Shown here piece after piece: positions 28,694 to 42,755 of a stretch of 64,000 bases of DNA. The DNA is from an uncultured Gammaproteobacteria bacterium (GTDB taxonomy: Bacteria; Pseudomonadota; Gammaproteobacteria; Steroidobacterales; Rariloculaceae). Each line of letters opens with the position of its first letter. Positions within the stretch are counted from its first letter, which is position 1. The stretch spans positions 5,850 to 69,849 of the forward strand of contig CAZKNH010000003.1 of assembly GCA_964553875.1 (NCBI GenBank). The letters run 5' to 3'. The notes under the pieces were generated by a model, which saw nothing but the letters and a program-made list of their open reading frames with translations, had not been told where the DNA came from and ran no database searches. Position numbers and translations under genes: made by a program.

Positions 28694-31303
<2,610 letters not shown>

Positions 31304-31431: not shown

Positions 31432-33276
31432 ATGCACGGCTCTCGCGTCCGCACCGGACTCGTCGCCGCCGCCGCGGCCCTCGCCGCTTTCTGCCCCGCC
31501 GCCTTTCCGCAGCCGCGCGCGCACCTCCCGCCGGCCGAGCGCGTCGTCGTCGTCGCGGACGTGCACGGCGCGTATGCCGAGCTCGCGGCGCTCCTGCGCG
31601 CGACGGGGCTCGTCGACGACGGGCTCCGCTGGAGCGGCGGCGCCGCCCGTCTCGTGAGCCTCGGCGACCTGGTCGACCGAGGCGCCGAGTCGCGCCGCGT
31701 GCTCGATCTCCTGATGCGCCTCGAGGCGGACGCAGCACGAAGCGGCGGCGGCGTCCATGTTGTGCTCGGCAACCACGAGGTCATGAACCTCGTCGGCGAC
31801 CTAAGGTACGTCGCGCCGGGCGAGCTCGCCGCGTTCGCCGCGGAGGAGTCCGATGCGGACCGCGCGGCCGCGCTCGAGCGCTTCCGCGCGCGCATCGACT
31901 CGGGCGAACAGGACACCGTCGCCGCGTTCGAGCGGCTCTATCCGCGAGGCTACTTTGCGCATCGGCGTGCGTTCGCGCCGGACGGCCGGTACGGCCGGTG
32001 GCTGCTGTCGCTGCCGTCGCTCGTCGTCGTCGGCGACACGGCCTTCGTGCACGGCGGATTGTCGGAGCCGATCATCGCCGAGCTCGCGGGAGAGCGGCCC
32101 GCGGACACCCTGAACCGCCGAGTCGAAGCGCGCCTCCGCCGCTATCTCGAGCTTCGTGCGCGGCTCGCCGACGCAGGGCTCCTGCCCGCCGACGATGCGC
32201 GTCGCGACCTCGAGCTCGTCGAAGCGGCGGCCGCGCGCGGAGCGGCGAGCACGGGCAGTCCCGACGACGGTTCGATCGCAGACCTGCTCGAAGCCTTCCT
32301 CGAGGAGGCCGCGTCGCCCGAGCTCGGGCTCGACGGCCCGCACTGGTATCGCGGCGCGATCTATTGCCCGCCGCTGCTCGAGCGGCCGGTGCTCGAGCTC
32401 GCGCTCGAGCGCCTCGGCGCGGCGCGAATCGTCGTCGGTCATACACCGACGCCGGACCGCCGCGCGCGGGCGCTGCACGACGGACGCCTGATCACCCTCG
32501 ACACCGGAATGCTCGTCGAAGCCTATTCGGGACGCCCCGCCGCGCTCGTCATCGAGAACGACACGACGTACGTGCAATACATCGATCCCGACGAGCGGCG
32601 ACCGCTCGAAACCGATGTAATTGAAGCCTATGGCCTCACCGAGGCGGAGCTCCTCGATACGCTCCGCGACGGGGACATCGTGCCGAGCACGAGCACGGAC
32701 GAGGTCATCGACGTCGTCGTCCGTCACGACGGCAAGACGATCGACGCGCGTCACTTCCGGGACGCGAAAACGGCGTCGCGCGAGCTCGCGGCGCATCGGC
32801 TCGATCGCCTGCTCGGGCTCGGCCTCGTGCCGCCGACCGTCGCCCGCGACGGCCGCGCGCTTCAGCTTCGCTATCCCGACGCTGTCTCGGAGGCCGACCG
32901 GATCGAGCGCGGCATCCCGCTCGGCGAGTGGTGCGCGCTCGATCCGCAGGTCGCGATGCTGCGAGCGTTCGATGCGCTGATCGCGAACCCCGCACGGCGG
33001 GCCGACACCGTGCTGTTTCGCGTCGAGCAGCCGCTCGTGAAATCGATCGGCCACGAGCGCGCCTTCGGCACCGGACGCCGGCTCGGCAGCGACGCGCCCG
33101 ACGAGCTGCCCGCTCCGCTCGTCGCCGCGCTCGCGACGCTCGACACGGGAACCCTCGCGGCGGAGCTCGGCGACTGGCTCGACCCGCGGCAGATCCGCTC
33201 GTTCGTCGCCCGCCGCGACGTGCTGCTCGACCGCGCCCGAGAGCGAGCCGGGAGCGCGCCCGACGCTCGCCGCTGA
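31432..33276 (+). CDS. Exported PPP-type metallophosphoesterase with a C-terminal kinase-like (probably degenerate) domain
   Basis: The signal-like N-terminus is MHGSRVRTGLVAAAAALAAFCPAAF. The phosphoesterase motifs are VVVADVHG, SLGDLVDRG, VLGNHE, FVHGG and VVGHTP. The C-terminal ~220 aa (RELAAHRLDRLLGLGLVPPTV...FDALIANPARRADTVLF...GHERAFG) parallel the core of the next gene. Confidence 0.75.
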   Translation: MHGSRVRTGLVAAAAALAAFCPAAFPQPRAHLPPAERVVVVADVHGAYAELAALLRATGLVDDGLRWSGGAARLVSLGDLVDRGAESRRVLDLLMRLEADAARSGGGVHVVLGNHEVMNLVGDLRYVAPGELAAFAAEESDADRAAALERFRARIDSGEQDTVAAFERLYPRGYFAHRRAFAPDGRYGRWLLSLPSLVVVGDTAFVHGGLSEPIIAELAGERPADTLNRRVEARLRRYLELRARLADAGLLPADDARRDLELVEAAAARGAASTGSPDDGSIADLLEAFLEEAASPELGLDGPHWYRGAIYCPPLLERPVLELALERLGAARIVVGHTPTPDRRARALHDGRLITLDTGMLVEAYSGRPAALVIENDTTYVQYIDPDERRPLETDVIEAYGLTEAELLDTLRDGDIVPSTSTDEVIDVVVRHDGKTIDARHFRDAKTASRELAAHRLDRLLGLGLVPPTVARDGRALQLRYPDAVSEADRIERGIPLGEWCALDPQVAMLRAFDALIANPARRADTVLFRVEQPLVKSIGHERAFGTGRRLGSDAPDELPAPLVAALATLDTGTLAAELGDWLDPRQIRSFVARRDVLLDRARERAGSAPDARR

Positions 33277-33292
33277 GACGGGCGGGCGCATC

Positions 33293-33320
33293 GCGACACT
33301 CTTGCTCTCGAGAGTGTCGC
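33293..33320 (+). other. Intercistronic hairpin (10-bp perfect stem)
   Basis: The stem is GCGACACTCT, the loop TGCTCTCG, and the return arm AGAGTGTCGC. It lies between the phosphoesterase stop and the GGAGGGG RBS of the next gene. Confidence 0.5.
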
Positions 33321-33339
33321 CATTTCGGAGGGGAACGCC

Positions 33340-34641
33340 ATGAGCCCCGAGTCGCCCGCAGAGCTCACGCGCCGACCGAGACGTCGGCGTCTCTCGGCCG
33401 CCGCGCTCGTCCTCGTCCTCGCGCACGCCGGCGCCGCCGACGGAGAAGGAGACGCCGTGCCCGAGCTTTTCGCGGATCGTGCACCGCTCGCATTCGAGCT
33501 CGTGCTCGATCGCCGCGCATTGTGCCGCCCGCGGCCGAGCAGGCCATGCGCATCGACGCCCGCGTCACTAACTTATCGCACCGCGGCGGGGCCGGCACAC
33601 CGGCTCGACGTCCTCGTGCGTGCAAGGGGCGGCTGGCGTGACGCCCACTGCGACGTTCCGCCGCTTCTCATCGAGATCGCGGCGCCGCCGGAAAGCGGCC
33701 CCTTCTCGGGGCAGACCCTGCTGCCGCTCACGACTCATTGCCGAACGGCGTCGTCGCGTTACGAGCAATACGTGCTCAAGGAGTATCTCGCGTACCGCCT
33801 CTACGAGCTTTTCACGCACAAGAGCTTACGCGTGCGCCTCGCGCGCATCACGTATCGGGACGTCGGTAAGCGGGGCCGGGCCGTCGAGCGCTTCGGTTTC
33901 GTCGTCGAGCACTTCGATCACCTCGCCGGCCGGCATGGCACGACGCTCCAGAACGCCGGCACGCTCCGGCTGTCCGACGCCGACGCATTCGAGCTCGCGA
34001 CCCTCGAGCTCTTTCAGTACCTGCTCGGCAATACGGACTGGTCGATCGTCGCCGGGCACAACGTCGTTCGCATGCGCGACGGTCAAGGCGTGGTGAGCGC
34101 GGTGCCGTACGACTTCGACTTCGCAGGGCTCGTCGGCGCGCCCTACGCATCGCCGCCGCCGAACCTTCCTCTGCGCAGTGTCCGCGAGCGGCTCTTCCGC
34201 GGCTTCTGTCATTCGCGGCTCGACTGGGAGCGGCTGTTCACCCGATTCGTCGAGCAGCGTGCCGGGGTGCTCGCGCTGATCGACGACGTGCCCGGGCTCG
34301 AGCGCGCGCAGCGCGACGACGTGCGCGACTATGTGCTCGACTTCTTCGATGTCATCGCGTCTCCGGAGAAGCGACGGCGAGAGATCGTCGGCGCGTGCCG
34401 TCCGATCGCCGAAACGTCATCCGCACAACCGCGTCCCGCGGAAGCCGCGCGCGGCCGGTCCGAGCGACGCTTCGCCGTGAACGCCGCAGCTTGCGTGCGG
34501 CACGATGTCGAGGCATATATGGGGCACGCTCCTAGCACGACACCTCCGCCGGCCCGAATACGACGGAGGGTCGCCCTCGAAGCGCTTGCGGCCGCGCCTG
34601 CGGCAATCCTCGTGCCGCATCCGACGACCGTCCGGTCTTGA
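33340..34641 (+). CDS. Exported hypothetical protein with HipA/PI3-4-kinase-like motifs
   Basis: The Arg-rich signal-like N-terminus is RRPRRRRLSAAALVLVLAHAGAADG, with GGAGGGG as RBS. Conserved-looking blocks are EYLAYRLYELF, LFQYLLGNTDWSIVAGHNVV and VPYDFDFAGLVGAPYASP. I cannot name the family. Confidence 0.6.
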   Translation: MSPESPAELTRRPRRRRLSAAALVLVLAHAGAADGEGDAVPELFADRAPLAFELVLDRRALCRPRPSRPCASTPASLTYRTAAGPAHRLDVLVRARGGWRDAHCDVPPLLIEIAAPPESGPFSGQTLLPLTTHCRTASSRYEQYVLKEYLAYRLYELFTHKSLRVRLARITYRDVGKRGRAVERFGFVVEHFDHLAGRHGTTLQNAGTLRLSDADAFELATLELFQYLLGNTDWSIVAGHNVVRMRDGQGVVSAVPYDFDFAGLVGAPYASPPPNLPLRSVRERLFRGFCHSRLDWERLFTRFVEQRAGVLALIDDVPGLERAQRDDVRDYVLDFFDVIASPEKRRREIVGACRPIAETSSAQPRPAEAARGRSERRFAVNAAACVRHDVEAYMGHAPSTTPPPARIRRRVALEALAAAPAAILVPHPTTVRS

Positions 34642-34676
34642 CCGTCATTTCCGTGCGTATCCGCGCGAGGTCGAGC

Positions 34677-37600
34677 ATGGGAGGCGAGGCGGCGACGGTG
34701 CGATTCATCGGCCCGAAGGGCGCCGGATGGATCGCTCTATGCCTGTCCGCGCCGTGCTGGGCTCAGGTCGATGCTGTCGATGACGTAACGGAGCTTCGCG
34801 CGGGCAGCGTGTCGAGCGCTCGGCAGGACGCGAGGCAGCGCGTCGACTACGCGTTCGAGGCGACGGCGGGCCGAACCTACCTGATCGAGCTCGATCAACA
34901 GGGACTCGACTTCGTACTGAGCATCGAGGATCCGCGTGGCGACGCACGCACGTACGGCTCGCCGTTGCTGCGCGACGAACGCGAGATCGTGCTGCTCGAG
35001 GATGCGCAGTCGGGGATCTATCGCGTCTCGGTCTTTTCCGAGGAGTTCTCGGCGGCTTCCGGCCGGCACGCGATCCGACTCTCCGCTCCGACACCCGGCG
35101 AAGATACGCGCGTGTGGGCCGCGATGAGCGCGGGCGCCGCCGCCTATCGACGCGGCGGCGAGCAAGGCTGGGCGGATGCGATCTCTGCGTACGAGACCGC
35201 GGCCGGGCTTGCGAGAGAGAGCGGTAGACACCGCGAGGTCGCGCACGCCCTCTTCGGCATCGCGGCGATCGAATACTGGTATCGCTACGCATGGACGCGC
35301 GCGGCGGAGCTCGCGAAGGAAGCGGCGCAACTCTATGCCGACCTCGACCAGCCTCTCCTCGAAGCGAGCGCGTTGCATCTCCGCGCGGCCGCGCTGATCG
35401 AGGAGGCGACTACCGTGCCGCGAACGTCGAGCGCCGGTCTCGCACCCCGGGCCCGGGCGCTGTTCGACGAAGCGCTCGACCTCTTCGACCGCGTGCGCCG
35501 CACTTTCGAGCGGCGCGGCCGATCGTACGAGGCGGGCCTCGCGATCAACAACGTCGGTCTTACGTACTACTACATGGGAGAGTACGCCGCCGCGCGCGCG
35601 TCGTGGGACGAGGCGGCTCGGCTCTTCCGGCGCCTCGGCGAGTGGGACAAAGAATTGACGGCCCTCGGCAATCAAGCCGTGATCGCTGCCGAGCAGGGCC
35701 GCCTCGCCGATGCGATCGCGATCTTCGAACGCAGCCTCGATCTCCTTTCGGCCGATCACCCGGACCGGGCGCTCACGCTCGACAATCTCGCCGCGACGCA
35801 CTACGCGCGCGGCGACTTCGACGACGCGCTGCGCACCTTCTCCGCGGCGCTCGACCTGCACAGGCGGAACGACGACGGCAAGGGCGAGGCGCACGCTTTG
35901 CGCGGGATCGGCTCGACCTACTTCGCACTGGGCCACCTCGAGCTCGCGACAGCGTTCCTCGAGCGAGCCTTGCCGCTCGCCCGGGAGAGCGGCGATGGAC
36001 GCAACGAGAAGAGCATCCGCGGCCTCTTGGGCAACGTCGCGTTCCTCGAAGGCGAGCACGAGGAGGCGCTCAATCATCATCGCGCGGCGCTCGCGCTCGC
36101 GACGGCGCCGACCGACGCTGCCGTCGTGCAGGTGCTGCTCGCGAAAGACCTCGTCGCGCTCGGTCGCCACGCCGCGGCAGGTGCGCTCGCCGCGGAGGCG
36201 CGGGCGACGGCAGAGGCCGCCGGCGCGAAGCTTCTCGTCGCCGATGCGCTTCAGCAGAGCGGACAGGCGCGGCTCGGGCTCGGCCGGACCTTGGAGGCGG
36301 CCGCCGACTTCCGACGCGCGCTCGCGGTCTATCGCGAGCTCGGTGTGTCGACGAAGGAGTCCGAGGCTCTGCACGGCATCGCGGAGAGCGCCGCGGCCGA
36401 CGGCCGGCTCGACGACGCCGTTCGCTACGGCAACGCGTCGCTCGTGGCGCTCGAAGCGGAACGCATTCGGATCGCGGCTCCGGAGCTGCGCGCGCACTAC
36501 GCTGCGATCCGCCGCGGCTACTACGAGGCGCAGATCGAGAGGCTGATGACCCTCCATCGTGCGGCGCGCGGCGGGGAAACGGATGCGCATCTCCTCGCCG
36601 CGTTCGAGACGAGCGAACGATCGCGTGCGCGTGTGCTGCTCGATCTGATGCACGAGACCGCGGACGACGACACGGCGACGGCGGACGATCGCTCGGCTCG
36701 CGAACGCGCGCGCCTGATCGAACGGCTCGCCGGGCTTCGCCACCGCCGCGATTCCTTGCTCGCCGCGCCTCCGACGGCGCAGACGGAAACCGAAGTCGCG
36801 GAGGCCGTCGCCGAGATGACGGTCGTCGACAACGAGCTCAAGGTGCTCGAGACGGCGCTTCGCTCGAAAGACGAGCGCTCGGCGCTCGCGCCCGCGAGTC
36901 CGCTGTCGCTCGACGAGATCCAGGCCGGGCTCGACGAACATTCGTTTCTCGTGCAGTACGCGCTCGGCGAGCGGCGGAGCCACGCGTGGATCGTCACGAA
37001 GTCGGCCGTGCACGCGGTCGAGCTCGCGCCGCGAGAGGCGCTCGAGTCGGCGGCGCGACGCGCCCATGATGCGCTCGCGCGCTACGACGCGAGCGCATCC
37101 AGAACGGAGCAGCTCGAAGAGCGCCTCGACTCGCTCGCGGAAGCGGTGCTCGCGCCGGTCCGTCCGTATCTAGGCGACGGGGGACGCATCGTCTTCTCGG
37201 CCGACGGCGCATTGCAGTACGTGCCGTTCGGCGTGCTGCGCGATACCGCGAGCGACGGTCGTCGGCTGATCGAGCAGTACGAGATCGCGGCCGTGCCGTC
37301 GGTGTCTGCCGTGCTGTCGTCGCGTGCCGCAACGCGCCCTGAGATCGCCGCGAACCGCGTCGCCGTGATCGCGGACCCCGTGTTCGAGCCCGACGATGCA
37401 AGGCTCGCAGGCATCCGCACGAGCCGCGAGCCGTCGCCGCGCAACCCGCCCGCGGAGCTCGAGCCCCGCTCCGCGCTCCTCGCCGAGCCCCTCGCACGGC
37501 TGCCGTTCGCAGGACGCGAAGCATCGGCGATCGCCGCCCTCGTCCCTCCTGACGACCGCCTCGTGCTCACCGGCGTCGCTGCGAGCCGCGACGCGGTATT

Positions 37601-38069
37601 GAACGCCGATCTCGGCCTCTATCGATTCGTGCACTTCGCTACGCACGGCTTCGTCGATTCGCGCTATCCGTCGCTCTCGGGCCTCGCGCTGTCCGGCATC
37701 GACGAGCACGGCGCGCCGCGCGACGGCTTTCTCCGTCTCGACGACATCCGCGTGCTGCGCCTCGATGCCGACGTCGTCGTGCTGAGCGCATGCGAGACCG
37801 CGCTCGGCCGCGAGATTCGCGGCGAGGGTTTGCTGGGGCTCACGCATGCGTTCATGCAGGCCGGGGCGCGCAGCACGGTCGCGAGCCTATGGCAGGTTCC
37901 CGACCGGGCAACCGCGGAGCTGATGAGCCGCTTCTACGCCGGAATGCTCGAGCGAGGCCTCCGGCCCACGGAGGCGTTGCGCGCGGCGCAGCTCGAGATC
38001 GCGGCGGAGCGGCGCTGGCGGGATCCGTATTTCTGGGGCGCTTTCGTGCTGATGGGCGACTGGCGCTAG
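34677..38069 (+). CDS. Exported PPC-like / TPR / CHAT-domain protein (caspase-like protease, 1130 aa)
   Basis: The signal-like N-terminus is MGGEAATVRFIGPKGAGWIALCLSAPCWAQV. The N-terminal beta-sandwich-like block is YAFEATAGRTYLIELDQQGLDFVLSIEDPRG...GIYRVSV. About 600 aa of TPR_10/12-type repeats follow (e.g. NNVGLTYYYMGEYAAARASWDEA, LDNLAATHYARGDFDDALRTF). The C-terminal CHAT domain has FVHFATHG (His codon 37644-37646) and VVVLSACETALG (Cys codon 37791-37793). The start was set at ATG 34677 (GAGG upstream); the track start is TTG 34638. Confidence 0.85.
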   Translation: MGGEAATVRFIGPKGAGWIALCLSAPCWAQVDAVDDVTELRAGSVSSARQDARQRVDYAFEATAGRTYLIELDQQGLDFVLSIEDPRGDARTYGSPLLRDEREIVLLEDAQSGIYRVSVFSEEFSAASGRHAIRLSAPTPGEDTRVWAAMSAGAAAYRRGGEQGWADAISAYETAAGLARESGRHREVAHALFGIAAIEYWYRYAWTRAAELAKEAAQLYADLDQPLLEASALHLRAAALIEEATTVPRTSSAGLAPRARALFDEALDLFDRVRRTFERRGRSYEAGLAINNVGLTYYYMGEYAAARASWDEAARLFRRLGEWDKELTALGNQAVIAAEQGRLADAIAIFERSLDLLSADHPDRALTLDNLAATHYARGDFDDALRTFSAALDLHRRNDDGKGEAHALRGIGSTYFALGHLELATAFLERALPLARESGDGRNEKSIRGLLGNVAFLEGEHEEALNHHRAALALATAPTDAAVVQVLLAKDLVALGRHAAAGALAAEARATAEAAGAKLLVADALQQSGQARLGLGRTLEAAADFRRALAVYRELGVSTKESEALHGIAESAAADGRLDDAVRYGNASLVALEAERIRIAAPELRAHYAAIRRGYYEAQIERLMTLHRAARGGETDAHLLAAFETSERSRARVLLDLMHETADDDTATADDRSARERARLIERLAGLRHRRDSLLAAPPTAQTETEVAEAVAEMTVVDNELKVLETALRSKDERSALAPASPLSLDEIQAGLDEHSFLVQYALGERRSHAWIVTKSAVHAVELAPREALESAARRAHDALARYDASASRTEQLEERLDSLAEAVLAPVRPYLGDGGRIVFSADGALQYVPFGVLRDTASDGRRLIEQYEIAAVPSVSAVLSSRAATRPEIAANRVAVIADPVFEPDDARLAGIRTSREPSPRNPPAELEPRSALLAEPLARLPFAGREASAIAALVPPDDRLVLTGVAASRDAVLNADLGLYRFVHFATHGFVDSRYPSLSGLALSGIDEHGAPRDGFLRLDDIRVLRLDADVVVLSACETALGREIRGEGLLGLTHAFMQAGARSTVASLWQVPDRATAELMSRFYAGMLERGLRPTEALRAAQLEIAAERRWRDPYFWGAFVLMGDWR

Positions 38070-38670: not shown

Positions 38671-38734
38671 TCGGTTCGAGGGTCTTTGCGCGGCGGACAC
38701 GTGGGACGTGCTCGCCGCCGCCGGGAGAAGGCTC

Positions 38735-40522
38735 ATGGCACGCACACTGTCCGTAGTCGTCCTCGCCGCAGCCGTTGCTTCCATGCTCGAGGTTTATGCC
38801 CAGGAGGATGCTTTCTACATCGCCGACGGAAGAAGAATCTCGCTGCCCGCCGCGCAACGATCGAGCGCCGTGCGTATCGTCGAAGGACGATTGGACGAGT
38901 TTCAGGCGGCCGTCGAGAAGGAGCCCGCGGTCACGCTCGTGCCGCTGCCCCTGCTGCAGCAGCGCTATGGGATTGCCTTCCTGGGCGCTGCCGAGGGCGT
39001 CGAAGACGAGGTCTTTCGCAGGGCTGTCGCCGTCCTCGAGGAGCACCCCGCCGTGGAGTCGGCCGTCCCCGTGTATCGGTCAGGCGACGTGGAGCTGGTG
39101 CTCGTCAACGAGTTCACCGTCCGCTTCGAGCCCGATGTGCCGCTCGAGACCGGCCGCGAGCTGCTCGAGCGGCTCGGCGCCGACGTGCTCGAGATCGACG
39201 AGCGCCGGTCCCGGTTCACCGTCACGTTCCCGCGCGAGGAGCCGGATGCCGCGCTCCGCTATATCAACGAGCTCGCGGTCGACCCGAGGACGAGGTATGC
39301 ACAGCCCTCGCTCGTAAGGGTTCTGCCCCCGCGCATCGGGTTCCTCGAAATCCCGCCGCCGCCAACGGGGTCACGGGGCACGCCGACAGCGGAGCCTCCG
39401 CCGGAAACGGCTTCCAGCTCGTTTCCGCGTTGTCCGTCCCCGGCGCCGGACGCGGTCTGGACCGGATCGCCGAATGACGTGCTTTTCGCCCGGCAATGGT
39501 CGCTGCGACACACTACTGCGGGCCGGGTCGGCGGCGCACCGGGAGCAGACATCCGCGCGCTTGCCGGATGGCAGGTTTCCCAAGGCTCGGCTGACGTGAC
39601 CATCGCCGTCCTCGACCTCGGCGTGTCCTCCGAGCACCCGGACTTGAAGAGCAAGATCGTTCCGGGGGCCGACGTCACGGGAGCCGGAACGACCGAGCCC
39701 CTTCTCGACGACCATCACGGCACCTCGATTGCGGGAGTCGCGGCCGCGGCATCGAACAACGCGGTTGGAATCGCCGGAGTCGATTGGCATGCGCGCGTCG
39801 CGCCGGTCCGAGTCAGCTACTCGGGCTGTGCCACCGGCGATTGCCGCTGGGAGTGGGCGCCGACACTTTTCGTCGACGGTATCTACGCGGCCATCGACCT
39901 CGGCGCGCGTGTTCTGATCGGCGCATGGGGATGGCACGGCGATCCGGACGACGGCCTGAGCGACGCCATCCGCGAAGCGGTCGAAGCGAACGCCGTCGTC
40001 GTCCTCGCGGCCGGTCAGCACCAGGCGGTCTTCGATGCCGACACCCCTGCGTGCGCAACCGGCGAAGACCGCTCGGTCTTCTATCCCGCCAACCTCGCCG
40101 GCAGCTCCGATCCGATCCTCGCGGGCGGCGTCATCGCCGTCAGCGCAACGGATCAGTGGGACGACTTTCAGGTCCACCAGTGCGAGGACCTGCAAGCCTA
40201 CGCCATCTGGGGCAGTAACCGGGGACCCGAGGTCTCGTTGTCCGCGCCCGGGACCGACATCCTGTCCCTGACCAACTACGGCGGCTACGCGTGCTACTTC
40301 GGAACGTCGATGTCGGCGCCGCTCGTCGCCGGCGCGGCGGCTCTGCTCCTTGCGAGGTATCCGGACGCGACACCCGCCGAGATCAAGCGCTGGCTCCAGG
40401 AGGGCGCCGACTATCTCGGCAGCGATCCGACGGGTCGGGACGACCGCTACGGGCACGGGCGCCTGAACCTCGCAGGTGCGTTCGAAGCCGCGGCGGCCGA
40501 TCGGGGATCGTCGCAGGAATGA
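38735..40522 (+). CDS. Exported subtilisin-like serine protease (peptidase S8), 595 aa
   Basis: The signal peptide is MARTLSVVVLAAAVASMLEVYAQE, with GGGAGAAG as RBS. The catalytic motifs are IAVLDLGV (Asp codon 39614-39616), DDHHGTSIAG (His codon 39716-39718) and GTSMSAPLVAG (Ser codon 40307-40309). A ~200-aa N-terminal pro-like region and a Pro-rich linker precede the catalytic domain. Confidence 0.85.
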   Translation: MARTLSVVVLAAAVASMLEVYAQEDAFYIADGRRISLPAAQRSSAVRIVEGRLDEFQAAVEKEPAVTLVPLPLLQQRYGIAFLGAAEGVEDEVFRRAVAVLEEHPAVESAVPVYRSGDVELVLVNEFTVRFEPDVPLETGRELLERLGADVLEIDERRSRFTVTFPREEPDAALRYINELAVDPRTRYAQPSLVRVLPPRIGFLEIPPPPTGSRGTPTAEPPPETASSSFPRCPSPAPDAVWTGSPNDVLFARQWSLRHTTAGRVGGAPGADIRALAGWQVSQGSADVTIAVLDLGVSSEHPDLKSKIVPGADVTGAGTTEPLLDDHHGTSIAGVAAAASNNAVGIAGVDWHARVAPVRVSYSGCATGDCRWEWAPTLFVDGIYAAIDLGARVLIGAWGWHGDPDDGLSDAIREAVEANAVVVLAAGQHQAVFDADTPACATGEDRSVFYPANLAGSSDPILAGGVIAVSATDQWDDFQVHQCEDLQAYAIWGSNRGPEVSLSAPGTDILSLTNYGGYACYFGTSMSAPLVAGAAALLLARYPDATPAEIKRWLQEGADYLGSDPTGRDDRYGHGRLNLAGAFEAAAADRGSSQE

Positions 40523-41865
40523 ATCGCGGACGGCCGCTTACGCCGCGGGTAGCCGCGCGAGAGCCGCGCGGCGACGAGGAGCCACAGCAGCGCGAGGCCC
40601 AAGTTCACGCACGCGAATTCGCGCGCCCCGAAACCGAGCGCGTGCACGCCTGTGTAGACGATGCCGGCTTGAAGCACGTCGCCGAAGCGCCAGAAGAAGG
40701 CGTCGATCGCCGTCTTGCCTTCGTATTTCGCCCCCGGCGCGAGCGGCAGATAGAGCGAGTGCCGCACGGTATTCGTCAGCGAATAGTTCACGCCGTTCTC
40801 GACGGTCTTCACGATCTTCAGGATCGCGAAGACCGGCACGAACGCAGCGAGCGCATAGCCGACGACCGCGAGGAGCGGCCCGACGAGCACGGCTCCCGCG
40901 ACGCCGACCCAGCGGAAGATGCGCCCGACGAGCAAGAGCTGCGTCGCGACCGCAAGGGTATTCACCGCGAAATAGAAGCTCGCGTAGAACGCGCCGATGA
41001 CGGCGCCGCGGTCGAGCCCGGAGTCGAGCGCGACCGCCCGGTCGGCATACGCTACGACGTGCTTCGAAAGCAGGTACTCGCCGGTCGTATTCACGCAATT
41101 GAGCAGCACGACGAGGACCGCGAGCCCGCGCAGATAGCGATCGTTCAGCACGAGCGAGAGGCCCGCGCGAACGGACGCGACGGATTCGGCGTCCCTCGCT
41201 CGGAAGGTCTCGGGCACCGCACGCCGGCTCCACTCCATCAGCGGCAGCGTCAAGGCGAGCAGCCCCGCGCAGACCAGCATCAGCGGCCAGACGCCGAGGA
41301 CCGGATAGAGGACGCGAAAGAGGAGCGGCCCTGCAAAGCCGCCGAGCACCGCTCCGCCTGCGATGACCGGAAATACCCGCTCGCCGCTCTCGACGTCGAA
41401 GGCGTCTGCGGCATGCGCCCAGAACTGAGCGACGATCACGACGCCGAACACGCCGACCCATACGTAATAGGCGACGGCAACGTCGGCACCGGCTCGACCC
41501 AGCAGGCAGAACAGGACCAGATTCGCGGCGAAGAAGGCAGTGATCGCACGCACGAGCTTGCGGCGGCCCACGTGCTTTGCGACGGCTCCGTACAGGGGGA
41601 CCGCCACCAGCAGCACCAGCGCAACGACGGCCTGCGCGATGCTCTTGATCTCCGGCGAGCCTTCGGTCAAGAGCAGGGGTTCGCGCAGCGTCTTCAGCAC
41701 GTAGTAGCAGACGAGCAGAACGAGCGCGTGCACGAAGAAGAGCGCGACGCTCGCCGCCTCCGTCGCCCGCGTCGATTCGACGCCGCGCAGGAACGAGGCC
41801 GCCCGGAGCCGACTGATGCTTCGCTCCGGCGCGGCCGCTCCGAATGGTGCCGCCTCACGTCCCAC
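40447..41865 (-). CDS. Npt1/Npt2 (TLC, ATP:ADP-antiporter-like) / MFS-type transporter
   Basis: The protein is polytopic (about 11-12 hydrophobic segments). YYVLKTLREPLLL...PLYGAVAKHVGRRKLV...VAQFWAHAAD resembles the Npt/TLC family N-terminal pattern. The 3' end overlaps the convergent S8 gene by 76 nt. The GTG start is uncertain. Confidence 0.6.
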   Translation of the reverse strand: MGREAAPFGAAAPERSISRLRAASFLRGVESTRATEAASVALFFVHALVLLVCYYVLKTLREPLLLTEGSPEIKSIAQAVVALVLLVAVPLYGAVAKHVGRRKLVRAITAFFAANLVLFCLLGRAGADVAVAYYVWVGVFGVVIVAQFWAHAADAFDVESGERVFPVIAGGAVLGGFAGPLLFRVLYPVLGVWPLMLVCAGLLALTLPLMEWSRRAVPETFRARDAESVASVRAGLSLVLNDRYLRGLAVLVVLLNCVNTTGEYLLSKHVVAYADRAVALDSGLDRGAVIGAFYASFYFAVNTLAVATQLLLVGRIFRWVGVAGAVLVGPLLAVVGYALAAFVPVFAILKIVKTVENGVNYSLTNTVRHSLYLPLAPGAKYEGKTAIDAFFWRFGDVLQAGIVYTGVHALGFGAREFACVNLGLALLWLLVAARLSRGYPRRKRPSAIHSCDDPRSAAAASNAPARFRRPCP

Positions 41866-42143: not shown

Positions 42144-42755
42144 GTGAAGGCGCCGAGCGAACGCGACGCCGTCGAGGCGCAGACGTCGATCGATCTCGTG
42201 CGCAGGATCGGCCGCGGCGACCGCGCCGCGGAACGCGAGATGGTCGAGCGATACGGCCGGGGGCTGCTGTATCTGCTGCGGCGTCGGACGTCGGATCCGG
42301 AGCTCGCGAAGGATCTGCGGCAGGAAGCCTACGTGATCGCCATCGAGAAGCTGCGCGCCTCTCCGATCGACGAGCCGGAGCGGCTCGGCGCTTATCTCCG
42401 CGGCATCGCGATCAATCTGGTCTCTGCGGCGCAGCGCAAGACGAGACGCCGCGCCACGTCGACCGACCTCGAGTCGATCGACGCGGCGTCCGACGCCCGC
42501 CCGGGGCCGGGAGACACGCTGTCGCGCGAGCAGATCGCGGCGAGCGTCCGTGCCCTGCTCGACGAGCTTCCGGTCGACCGCGACCGCGAGGTGCTCATTC
42601 GTCTTTACCTGATGGATCAGGATCGTGACCGGATCTGCGACGCGCTCGGCATCGATGCGTCGCATTTCAACCGCGTGCTGTTTCGTGCGAAGCAGCGCTT
42701 CAAGGCATTGCTGATGCAGGCGGCGAGGCGTCGAAAACTCGACGTCGTGAGCTGA
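42144..42755 (+). CDS. ECF-type RNA polymerase sigma factor
   Basis: Region 2 reads LVRRIGRGDRAAEREMVERYGRGLLYLLRRR...DLRQEAYVIAIEKL. Region 4 reads LDELPVDRDREVLIRLYLMDQDRDRICDALGIDASHFNRVLFRAKQRFK. GTG start with AAGGCGGAG upstream. Confidence 0.85.
   Translation: MKAPSERDAVEAQTSIDLVRRIGRGDRAAEREMVERYGRGLLYLLRRRTSDPELAKDLRQEAYVIAIEKLRASPIDEPERLGAYLRGIAINLVSAAQRKTRRRATSTDLESIDAASDARPGPGDTLSREQIAASVRALLDELPVDRDREVLIRLYLMDQDRDRICDALGIDASHFNRVLFRAKQRFKALLMQAARRRKLDVVS

Follow-up and report, generated by a model that had tools for sequence, protein, structure and literature searches.

A putative phosphatase–pseudokinase fusion and a linked CotH-like kinase family in an uncultured gammaproteobacterium

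The Fam20 secretory kinases and pseudokinases of animals act in an extracytoplasmic, oxidising compartment, and the pseudokinase Fam20A binds ATP non-productively and activates Fam20C (PMC7948968). The spore-coat protein kinase CotH of Bacillus (PDB 5JD9/5JDA; PF08757) has, in B. subtilis, a catalytic Asp (D228) and a metal-binding Asp (D251) (PMC7821199). Canonical CotH genes cluster with Pel polysaccharide, polyphosphate polymerase and DUF4956 genes (10.1101/768473), and CotH beside polyphosphate polymerase/DUF4956 genes is also known (PMC2879425). CAPTPase, the cold-active protein-tyrosine phosphatase of Shewanella (PDB 1V73, 2Z72; psychrophilic phosphatase I), is a single-domain enzyme of ~340 amino acids (aa), without a kinase-like domain and with no kinase partner reported. 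Here we describe two adjacent genes, A and B, whose products resemble these proteins. They lie in a window of 64,000 nucleotides (contig CAZKNH010000003.1 of assembly GCA_964553875.1, positions 5,850 to 69,849 of the forward strand) from an uncultured gammaproteobacterium of the Rariloculaceae. We put at roughly 55% the probability that A and B form an exported writer/eraser pair whose donor is supplied by a linked transporter.

The N-terminal domain of A is a homologue of CAPTPase, with GDxHG, GDxxDRG, GNHE and WYRG common to both, but in A it is joined to a kinase-like domain. This C-terminal domain aligns with FAM20A and FAM20B (PDB 5XOM, 5WRR) in the alpha-C (EIAAFHLDRLLG...PP.V.R), catalytic (FDFLIGNxDRH) and metal (LDNA..FG) segments. 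Its presumed place of action is likewise extracytoplasmic and oxidising, and its partner would be an active kinase, just as FAM20C is the partner of FAM20A. Unlike the Fam20 proteins, it is bacterial, ~220 aa long and fused to a phosphatase, and its partner kinase is CotH-like and no paralogue; it lacks both the catalytic Asp and the ATP-binding Lys, whereas FAM20A lacks a Glu only. The best bacterial family match of the domain is the SCO1664 family (TIGR03843, PI3/PI4-kinase-like), although the scores are far under the cutoff (34 versus 172 bits). We take the SCO1664 proteins to be stand-alone and actinobacterial.

CotH is the best structural match of B, yet the identity is 11%. CotH has a catalytic-loop Asp and, ~25 residues later, an acidic metal loop, and B a putative counterpart of each; relatives of both proteins adjoin DUF4956 and polyphosphate genes. 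Unlike CotH, B occurs in Gram-negative bacteria, is probably exported by the Sec route, has six conserved cysteines, is often fused to an MFS/TLC transporter and has no link to sporulation. The transporter gene of the window encodes a protein that passes the Pfam TLC model and has ~12 transmembrane helices, like the AAA/TLC transporters (Rickettsia Tlc, Chlamydia Npt1/2, plastid NTT; PF03219, TIGR00769). It differs from them in that it matches their models only weakly and in part, that it comes from a free-living host, and that there are C-terminal fusions to a putative periplasmic kinase or an immunoglobulin-like (Ig) domain. The ATP export that we propose for it is the opposite of the known physiological role of these carriers.

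The two domains of gene A

Gene A (31432..33276, + strand; 614 aa) encodes a signal peptide, a PPP-family phosphatase domain (calcineurin-like, CAPTPase-like; residues ~35-385, 31534..32586, +) and a putative Fam20/SCO1664/PI4KII-like pseudokinase domain (residues ~386-608, 32587..33255, +). This open reading frame and the next (33340-34641, + strand) exist as described in the initial annotation, made from the DNA alone, which had placed two adjacent genes in 31432-34641. All the sequence blocks that it quoted are present: DVHG, GDLVDRG, GNHE, ELAAHRLDRLLGLGLVPPTV, FDALIANPARRADTVLF and IGHERAFG in A, and EYLAYRLYELF, LFQYLLGNTDWSIVAGHNVV and VPYDFDFAG in B. That they resemble known motifs is no coincidence.

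The A family has 1870 homologues, nearly all ~600 aa long and with the same architecture. The phosphatase domain matches Pfam Metallophos above threshold (1.4e-11) and the Shewanella protein-tyrosine phosphatase 2z72/1v73 by phmmer (E 4e-26). An AF2 model of A (pLDDT 91, pTM 0.89) has 1v73 as its best structural match (Foldseek E 8.5e-19, TM 0.70 on target). The PPP motifs DVHG, GDLVDRG and GNHE are all in place, and the PPP ligands D43, H45, D79, R83, N114, H115, H207 and H337 are kept in 119-120 of 120 homologues aligned with MAFFT. Since the ligands are near-invariant and the homology is clear, the phosphatase half of A is judged intact, as the initial annotation had it, and is predicted from its sequence to be active. 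Only two cysteines are invariant among the 120 homologues, C312 and C501, and each of the two domains, phosphatase and pseudokinase, contains one of them, which suggests an inter-domain disulfide; the high pTM (0.89) of the model indicates a fixed arrangement of the two predicted domains.

The C-terminal domain was compared with PDB sequences by hmmsearch with a profile (A3) made from 20 of its members. This profile matched the xylosylkinase FAM20B (E 1.1e-6, in two stretches), the pseudokinase FAM20A (8.7e-5), FAM20C (0.049) and C. elegans Fam20 (0.29). The blocks of A fall on the alpha-C helix, catalytic loop and metal-binding loop of FAM20B/FAM20A. In the alpha-C segment the A-family sequence ELAAxxLDrLLGxxLVPPTVxR stands against EIAAFHLDRLLGFYRAPPVVGR, in the catalytic loop FDLLIaNrGRt stands against FDFLIGNADRHH of FAM20B, and in the metal loop LTDHxxAFG (IGHERAFG in A itself) stands against LDNAKSFG (FAM20B) and LDNARGFG (FAM20A). 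The NCBIfam model TIGR03843 (SCO1664 family, PI3/4K-like) was matched below its cutoff by 19 of the 20 members. The best value was 3e-13, the match being partial even for that member, and the domain of the window scored 33.7 bits against a cutoff of 172.4. The structure model of A also matched, after the phosphatases, PI3K-delta (8.9e-6), PI4KII-beta (2.8e-5) and PRPK (3.9e-5), each with probability 1.0 (Foldseek). HipA was considered as the nearest family and rejected: HipA_2 was matched by three of 38 members at E 0.1, more weakly than Fam20/SCO1664.

The catalytic loop of this domain (FDALIANPARRADTV, residues 513-527, 32968..33012, +) is degenerate, with A521 at the position of the Fam20 catalytic Asp. 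The metal-binding loop, equivalent to DFG (IGHERAFG, residues 539-546, 33046..33069, +), is degenerate too, with G540. Among the 120 homologues, Asp never occurs at the catalytic position (G 84, A 14, S 11) and Lys never at the ATP-binding position (Y 80, V 15, I 8, F 7, R 4; F442 in the window). The metal Asp is kept in 75, with Gly in its place in the window and 23 others. Because the catalytic Asp and the ATP-binding Lys are missing from 120 of 120 homologues, the pseudokinase state is that of the whole A family. Other positions are fixed: E451, D514, R522, F545 and C501 are invariant in the 120 homologues, N519 is present in 116, and R472, E487 and Q506 are invariant in a 38-sequence alignment. 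A search of 1.84 billion representatives found the domain in 3290 clusters, the closest of which are almost all ~600-aa phosphatase fusions. Judged from these alignments, the domain is a conserved, selected, family-wide pseudokinase domain and not a recently decayed copy. The initial annotation had rightly called it catalytically degenerate, but the decay of a copy, by which it explained this, does not describe an ancient family-wide state with invariant residues of its own.

Gene B, its export and its partner genes

Gene B (33340..34641, + strand; 433 aa) encodes a signal peptide, a CotH-like kinase core with six conserved cysteines (residues ~40-360, 33457..34419, +) and a lineage-specific disordered tail (residues ~361-433). 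It has 1062 homologues and is present in at least 577 loci of GTDB species genomes, in Gammaproteobacteria, Gemmatimonadota, Bacteroidota, Alphaproteobacteria and Acidobacteriota. Cultured carriers of B include Rubrivirga sp. IMCC43871 and Fibrella rubiginis HMF5335. Neither Pfam nor NCBIfam assigns B to a family, Pfam CotH does not match it at E<=10, and the B-family profile found nothing among PDB sequences at E<=10. However, the AF2 model of B (pLDDT 81, core mostly >90) matches B. cereus CotH 5jd9/5jda (Foldseek E 1.2e-7/1.7e-7, probability 1.0, TM 0.46/0.55). These are its only strong PDB matches, followed by PI4KII-beta at 0.04 and then by many protein kinases. Nine of 38 B relatives match Pfam CotH under threshold, the best at 0.0039. 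Relative P0036 scores 12.5 bits against a gathering score of 23.8, whereas B of the window fails the model, and the stretch of P0036 that is matched (residues 503-546, LFQYLIGNADWS...HN...PYDFDFSG) is the counterpart of the blocks quoted for B.

The predicted catalytic loop of B, GNTDWSIVAGHN, comprises residues 230-241 (34027..34062, +), with D233 and N241, and the putative metal-binding loop, DFD, residues 258-260 (34111..34119, +). Residues G230, N231, T232, D233, S235, N241, D258 and D260 are invariant in 38 sequences, as are E148, R166 and E190; the catalytic-loop motif is found in 119 and the DxD motif in 117 of 120 homologues. The cysteines C62, C70, C104 and C134 are invariant, and C290 and C353 are conserved to >=90%. 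The distance from D233 to the metal loop is 25-27 residues in B, compared with 23 residues from D228 to D251 in CotH (PMC7821199). The initial annotation likened these blocks to catalytic and Mg-binding loops, and this is supported: two nearly invariant motifs give B a probable catalytic-loop Asp and a putative metal loop of the DxD type. CotH and Fam20, which it named among the families to be compared, were well chosen. B is predicted to be a CotH-like kinase with an apparently complete active site, too divergent for the CotH family by the Pfam criterion.

The tail of B (34420-34641, ~75 residues) is modelled with low confidence and is Ala/Pro/Arg-rich; it is common only to the 75%-identical P0002 and absent elsewhere in the family. 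B domains also occur with an unassigned N-terminal extension of ~250 aa (a 567-aa protein, locus L091, 8296-9999), and tandem pairs of B paralogues occur in five loci (L019, L047, L056, L074 and L080).

Both proteins look exported by Sec-type signal peptides, to judge from their sequence features. The A family has a hydrophobic N-terminus that ends in a conserved AxA-Q site; in B, an n-region rich in Arg precedes a hydrophobic core and AHA-G. The six conserved cysteines in B and the two invariant ones in A, one per domain, fit export. In fusions of B to a transporter, a K/R-rich loop (7 K+R, 0 D+E) comes after the final transporter helix and leads to one more hydrophobic helix (the 13th transmembrane helix) and an acidic linker (5 K+R, 14 D+E); by the positive-inside rule, this order places B outside the membrane. 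These features agree with the initial annotation, in which both proteins were exported.

In the window, A and B are co-oriented and separated by 64 bp; GGAGG precedes the ATG of B, and no terminator-like site was found in the gap. To describe this linkage in other genomes we used an A-anchored survey of seven loci, retrieved through A homologues of 45-63% identity, and a B-anchored survey of 80 species loci, with partner genes sought within 6 kb. A homologue of B lies <=5 kb from A in all seven A-anchored loci and in the syntenic relative L088. The arrangement differs: B is downstream of A in the same direction in L090, immediately upstream of A in L091 and L092, divergent from A in L007 and convergent with it in L005. 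In L005, L006 and L093, B is part of a transporter-B fusion a few kb from A. Conversely, a CAPTPase-like PPP phosphatase is found <=6 kb from B in 12 of the 80 loci, in Gammaproteobacteria, Alphaproteobacteria and Bacteroidota. Five of these 12 phosphatases, all gammaproteobacterial, have the pseudokinase domain, and the other seven (Kordiimonas, Sphingomonadaceae, Dokdonella and Bacteroidales) do not. Because of the A-anchored linkage and the flanking of B by PPP phosphatases in three phyla, the kinase–phosphatase pairing is of long standing and recurs. B does not depend on A, but A seems to depend on B.

Other genes were seen at these loci. Beside the transporter-B fusion, L006 (10578-12179), L093 (12455-14077) and L005 (12759-14378) encode a ~535-aa protein with an OmpR-type winged helix (Trans_reg_C), which has TPR repeats in L006 and L093, where it is placed between A and the fusion; this protein is a candidate dedicated regulator. 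In L090 (11801-13355), guanylate-cyclase-FHA and PycTM-domain proteins, which are cyclic-nucleotide signalling or defence-type genes, lie between A and B.

The initial annotation pointed out that ATP is not normally available outside the cytoplasm. This puzzle is a legitimate one, and the comparative data suggest a solution, an ATP:ADP-antiporter-like transporter that is linked or fused to B. The window encodes an AAA/TLC-type (ATP:ADP antiporter-like) MFS transporter (40447..41865, - strand) that matches Pfam MFS_1 (6.4e-10) and TLC (7.3e-7), both above gathering score; the TLC match has 28.8 bits against a gathering score of 21 and covers model positions 400-490 only, in the C-terminal part of the protein. 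The transporter shares 54% identity with the N-terminal (transporter) part of the fusion to B in L005 and, on this comparison, is orthologous to the transporters that other genomes have joined to B. Among its 120 closest cluster representatives, 21 have a C-terminal B domain, ~50 a C-terminal He_PIG Ig domain, and the rest stand alone. Homologues are named 'AAA family ATP:ADP antiporter' (JGI) and, in some cases, 'Npt1/Npt2 family nucleotide transporter' (NCBI). From the side of B, seven of the top 120 matches are membrane-domain fusions (P0006, P0010, P0021, P0034, P0036, P0038 and P0061), and the N-terminal domain passes the Pfam TLC (ATP/ADP transporter) threshold in the three that were scanned (P0006, P0034 and P0036). 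In L003/L004 the transporter is encoded separately, by a gene that overlaps the start of B. The TLC-like transporter with a C-terminal He_PIG Ig-like domain (L003, 6385-8004; ~540 aa) has no extra transmembrane helix; by the positive-inside rule its Ig domain would therefore be cytoplasmic, which is unusual.

Elsewhere B has other partners. PPK1 adjoins it in 8-9 loci, four of them with the genes directly adjacent, and a DUF4956 membrane protein in 12 loci. What unites these cases is the coupling of B to machinery for making or moving high-energy phosphate. In Gemmatimonadota a PPK1 with an unannotated N-terminal extension of ~460 aa lies beside B (L016, 13391-16831), and PPK1 with an N-terminal extension directly abuts B in L020, L021, L038 and L045. 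An SdiA-regulated/phytase-like beta-propeller gene lies between B and the DUF4956 gene in L039 (9295-10155) and L083 (4138-4950). The open reading frames of 324-349 aa near DUF4956 (L065, 3814-4788; L039, 8325-9374), for which a VTC domain was considered, gave no Pfam match.

Proposed mechanism and alternatives

The proposal of an exported writer/eraser pair, located in the periplasm or the cell envelope, is built on the folds, motifs, export signals, conserved linkage and gene fusions described above. B would be a highly divergent but catalytically competent relative of CotH, acting as a kinase on a protein or glycan that is secreted or part of the envelope, and A would be the matching eraser, its CAPTPase-like PPP phosphatase taking the phosphate off. 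The pseudokinase domain of A would transfer no phosphate and would serve instead for recognition, docking or allostery, its ligand being the substrate, a nucleotide or the kinase B itself, much like FAM20A in its partnership with FAM20C. In what is the simplest explanation for the window, the linked AAA/TLC-type transporter is presumed to move ATP out and ADP in across the inner membrane, so feeding the periplasmic kinase, and would be a bacterial counterpart of the luminal ATP import that serves eukaryotic secretory-pathway kinases. Polyphosphate enzymes may be the suppliers in other lineages. More tentatively, and with the odds somewhat against it, we suggest that many Gram-negative bacteria carry out ATP-dependent periplasmic phosphorylation with a carrier-fed CotH-like kinase, a modification that a PPP-pseudokinase protein reverses or steers.

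Several points weigh against this proposal. The activities ascribed to the A and B families come from comparisons of sequence and structure. No lysine is invariant in B, so that ATP use is not guaranteed, although R96 and R100 or K147 might stand in for one. No partner gene at all lies within 6 kb in 48 of the 80 B loci. The transporter of the window is on the opposite strand, 6 kb downstream of B, and at least one transporter locus, L089, has no B nearby. The transporter is only a distant relative of characterised nucleotide carriers, and it scores 30 bits (1.8e-7) against a TIGR00769 (NCBIfam) cutoff of 387. To our knowledge, all characterised members of that family import nucleotides into intracellular bacteria or plastids.

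Of the other explanations, the one that survives best, although we consider it unlikely, is that A and B belong to a phosphate or polyphosphate metabolism module and are no signalling pair. B would then be a kinase of small molecules or glycans, or one that depends on polyphosphate; its role would be to modify exopolysaccharide or lipopolysaccharide, or to handle extracellular polyphosphate, and A would be a scavenging phosphoesterase. The xylose kinase FAM20B is a precedent and, as a sugar kinase, is also the best PDB sequence match of the C-terminal domain of A. The PPK1, DUF4956 and beta-propeller genes beside B, and the similar company of canonical CotH genes, favour the same explanation. 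However, the closest characterised relatives are a protein kinase (CotH) and a protein-tyrosine phosphatase, and a scavenger would need neither a strictly conserved pseudokinase domain nor a strict linkage to B. Moreover, the examined stretch of the window, about 28-45 kb, contains no polyphosphate or polysaccharide genes.

It is improbable that the C-terminal domain of A is active through a remodelled pocket, in some other nucleotide-dependent reaction like the AMPylation by SelO or the glutamylation by SidJ, which would make A bifunctional. This would agree with the non-canonical residues listed above as invariant or nearly so, and with the retention of the metal-binding Asp in 75 of 120 homologues; precedents for active 'pseudokinases' are given in references cited in PMC7948968. 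But in A of the window G540 takes the place of the metal Asp and T526 that of the loop Asn, so that metal-dependent chemistry would have been lost there and the domain kept, and no alternative catalytic constellation was found.

That A and B are independent and their adjacency without functional meaning is hardly tenable: B occurs without A in most phyla and the A-B intergenic arrangement differs among genomes, but B stays <=5 kb from A in all seven A-anchored loci, which are independent, have only 45-55% identity and show three orientations, and the PPP-B adjacency recurs in three phyla.

Equally remote is the version of the initial annotation, which would make the C-terminal domain of A a pseudo-enzyme copy of its neighbour, a duplicate of gene B that has degenerated. 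Its suggestion of a common kinase-like core holds as a statement about the fold: in structure searches both regions match kinase folds, B that of CotH (1e-7) and the A domain those of PI3K-delta, PI4KII-beta and PRPK. It fails as a statement about copies. The order of motifs is the same in A and B, and the single hhalign match between the families sits on the catalytic loop (FDALIANP against FQYLLGNT). However, hhalign of the A domain with B gave a probability of 0.4-0.6% over 15-17 columns and BLASTP found no similarity between A and B; we therefore dropped the idea of a duplicate, which the pairwise comparison proposed by the initial annotation does not detect. The A-type domain is, besides, a large family of its own (the 3290 clusters noted above), with different nearest relatives, Fam20/SCO1664 rather than CotH. 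CotH and Fam20 are reportedly distantly related. The C-terminal domain of A (Fam20/SCO1664-like) and B (CotH-like) belong to different families, with kinship only at the level of the superfamily.

Neighbouring genes and significance

In the window, leuS (28694-31303) lies upstream of A, and B is followed by genes for a TPR-CHAT protein (34638..38069, +) and an S8 subtilase (38708..40522, +), by the transporter gene, by an ECF sigma factor gene (42144-42755) and then by lnt. In L088, a related contig of 80-85% identity, the genes follow one another in the same way (leuS, A, B, TPR, S8, transporter, sigma, lnt). A scan of 31.2-42.3 kb for promoters and terminators gave counts near the shuffled expectation and was uninformative.

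The TPR-CHAT protein (caspase-like protease; Pfam CHAT 4e-69, plus TPR repeats), encoded directly after B, has an apparent signal peptide, GWIALCLSAPCWAQ. The TTG start of its open reading frame overlaps the stop of B, and its probable start is the ATG at 34677. It is a syntenic neighbour only in the close relative L088, where the gene called is that of a 559-aa TPR protein. CHAT/TPR as a conserved partner of B was ruled out, being absent from the surveyed loci L001-L087. The subtilase between the CHAT gene and the transporter gene (Pfam Peptidase_S8 1e-38; mycosin-like NCBIfam match 4e-42) is secreted, lineage-specific and also syntenic in L088. The two would be exported proteases beside the kinase/phosphatase pair, and could be its substrates or regulated targets.

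The individual folds of A and B are already known. In the literature searched, however, we found no description of the architecture that joins a phosphatase to a Fam20-like pseudokinase domain, of a divergent exported CotH-like family or its strict linkage to A, or of a Rosetta-stone fusion of B to an ATP:ADP-antiporter-like carrier. Both families are large and essentially unannotated, B being a 'hypothetical protein' and A just a 'metallophosphoesterase' in the sources. Their sequences tie bacterial exported proteins to the animal Fam20 secretory kinases and pseudokinases, and the conserved association of kinase, phosphatase-pseudokinase and transporter offers a testable model of how phosphotransfer outside the bacterial cytoplasm could be energised. 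If true, this model would give the eukaryotic Fam20C/Fam20A pair with luminal ATP import a counterpart in prokaryotes, perhaps one related to it by evolution, and would overturn the working assumption that there is no ATP-driven kinase signalling in the periplasm. It would also add a new layer of envelope regulation and supply a tractable bacterial model for pseudokinase-guided phosphatases.

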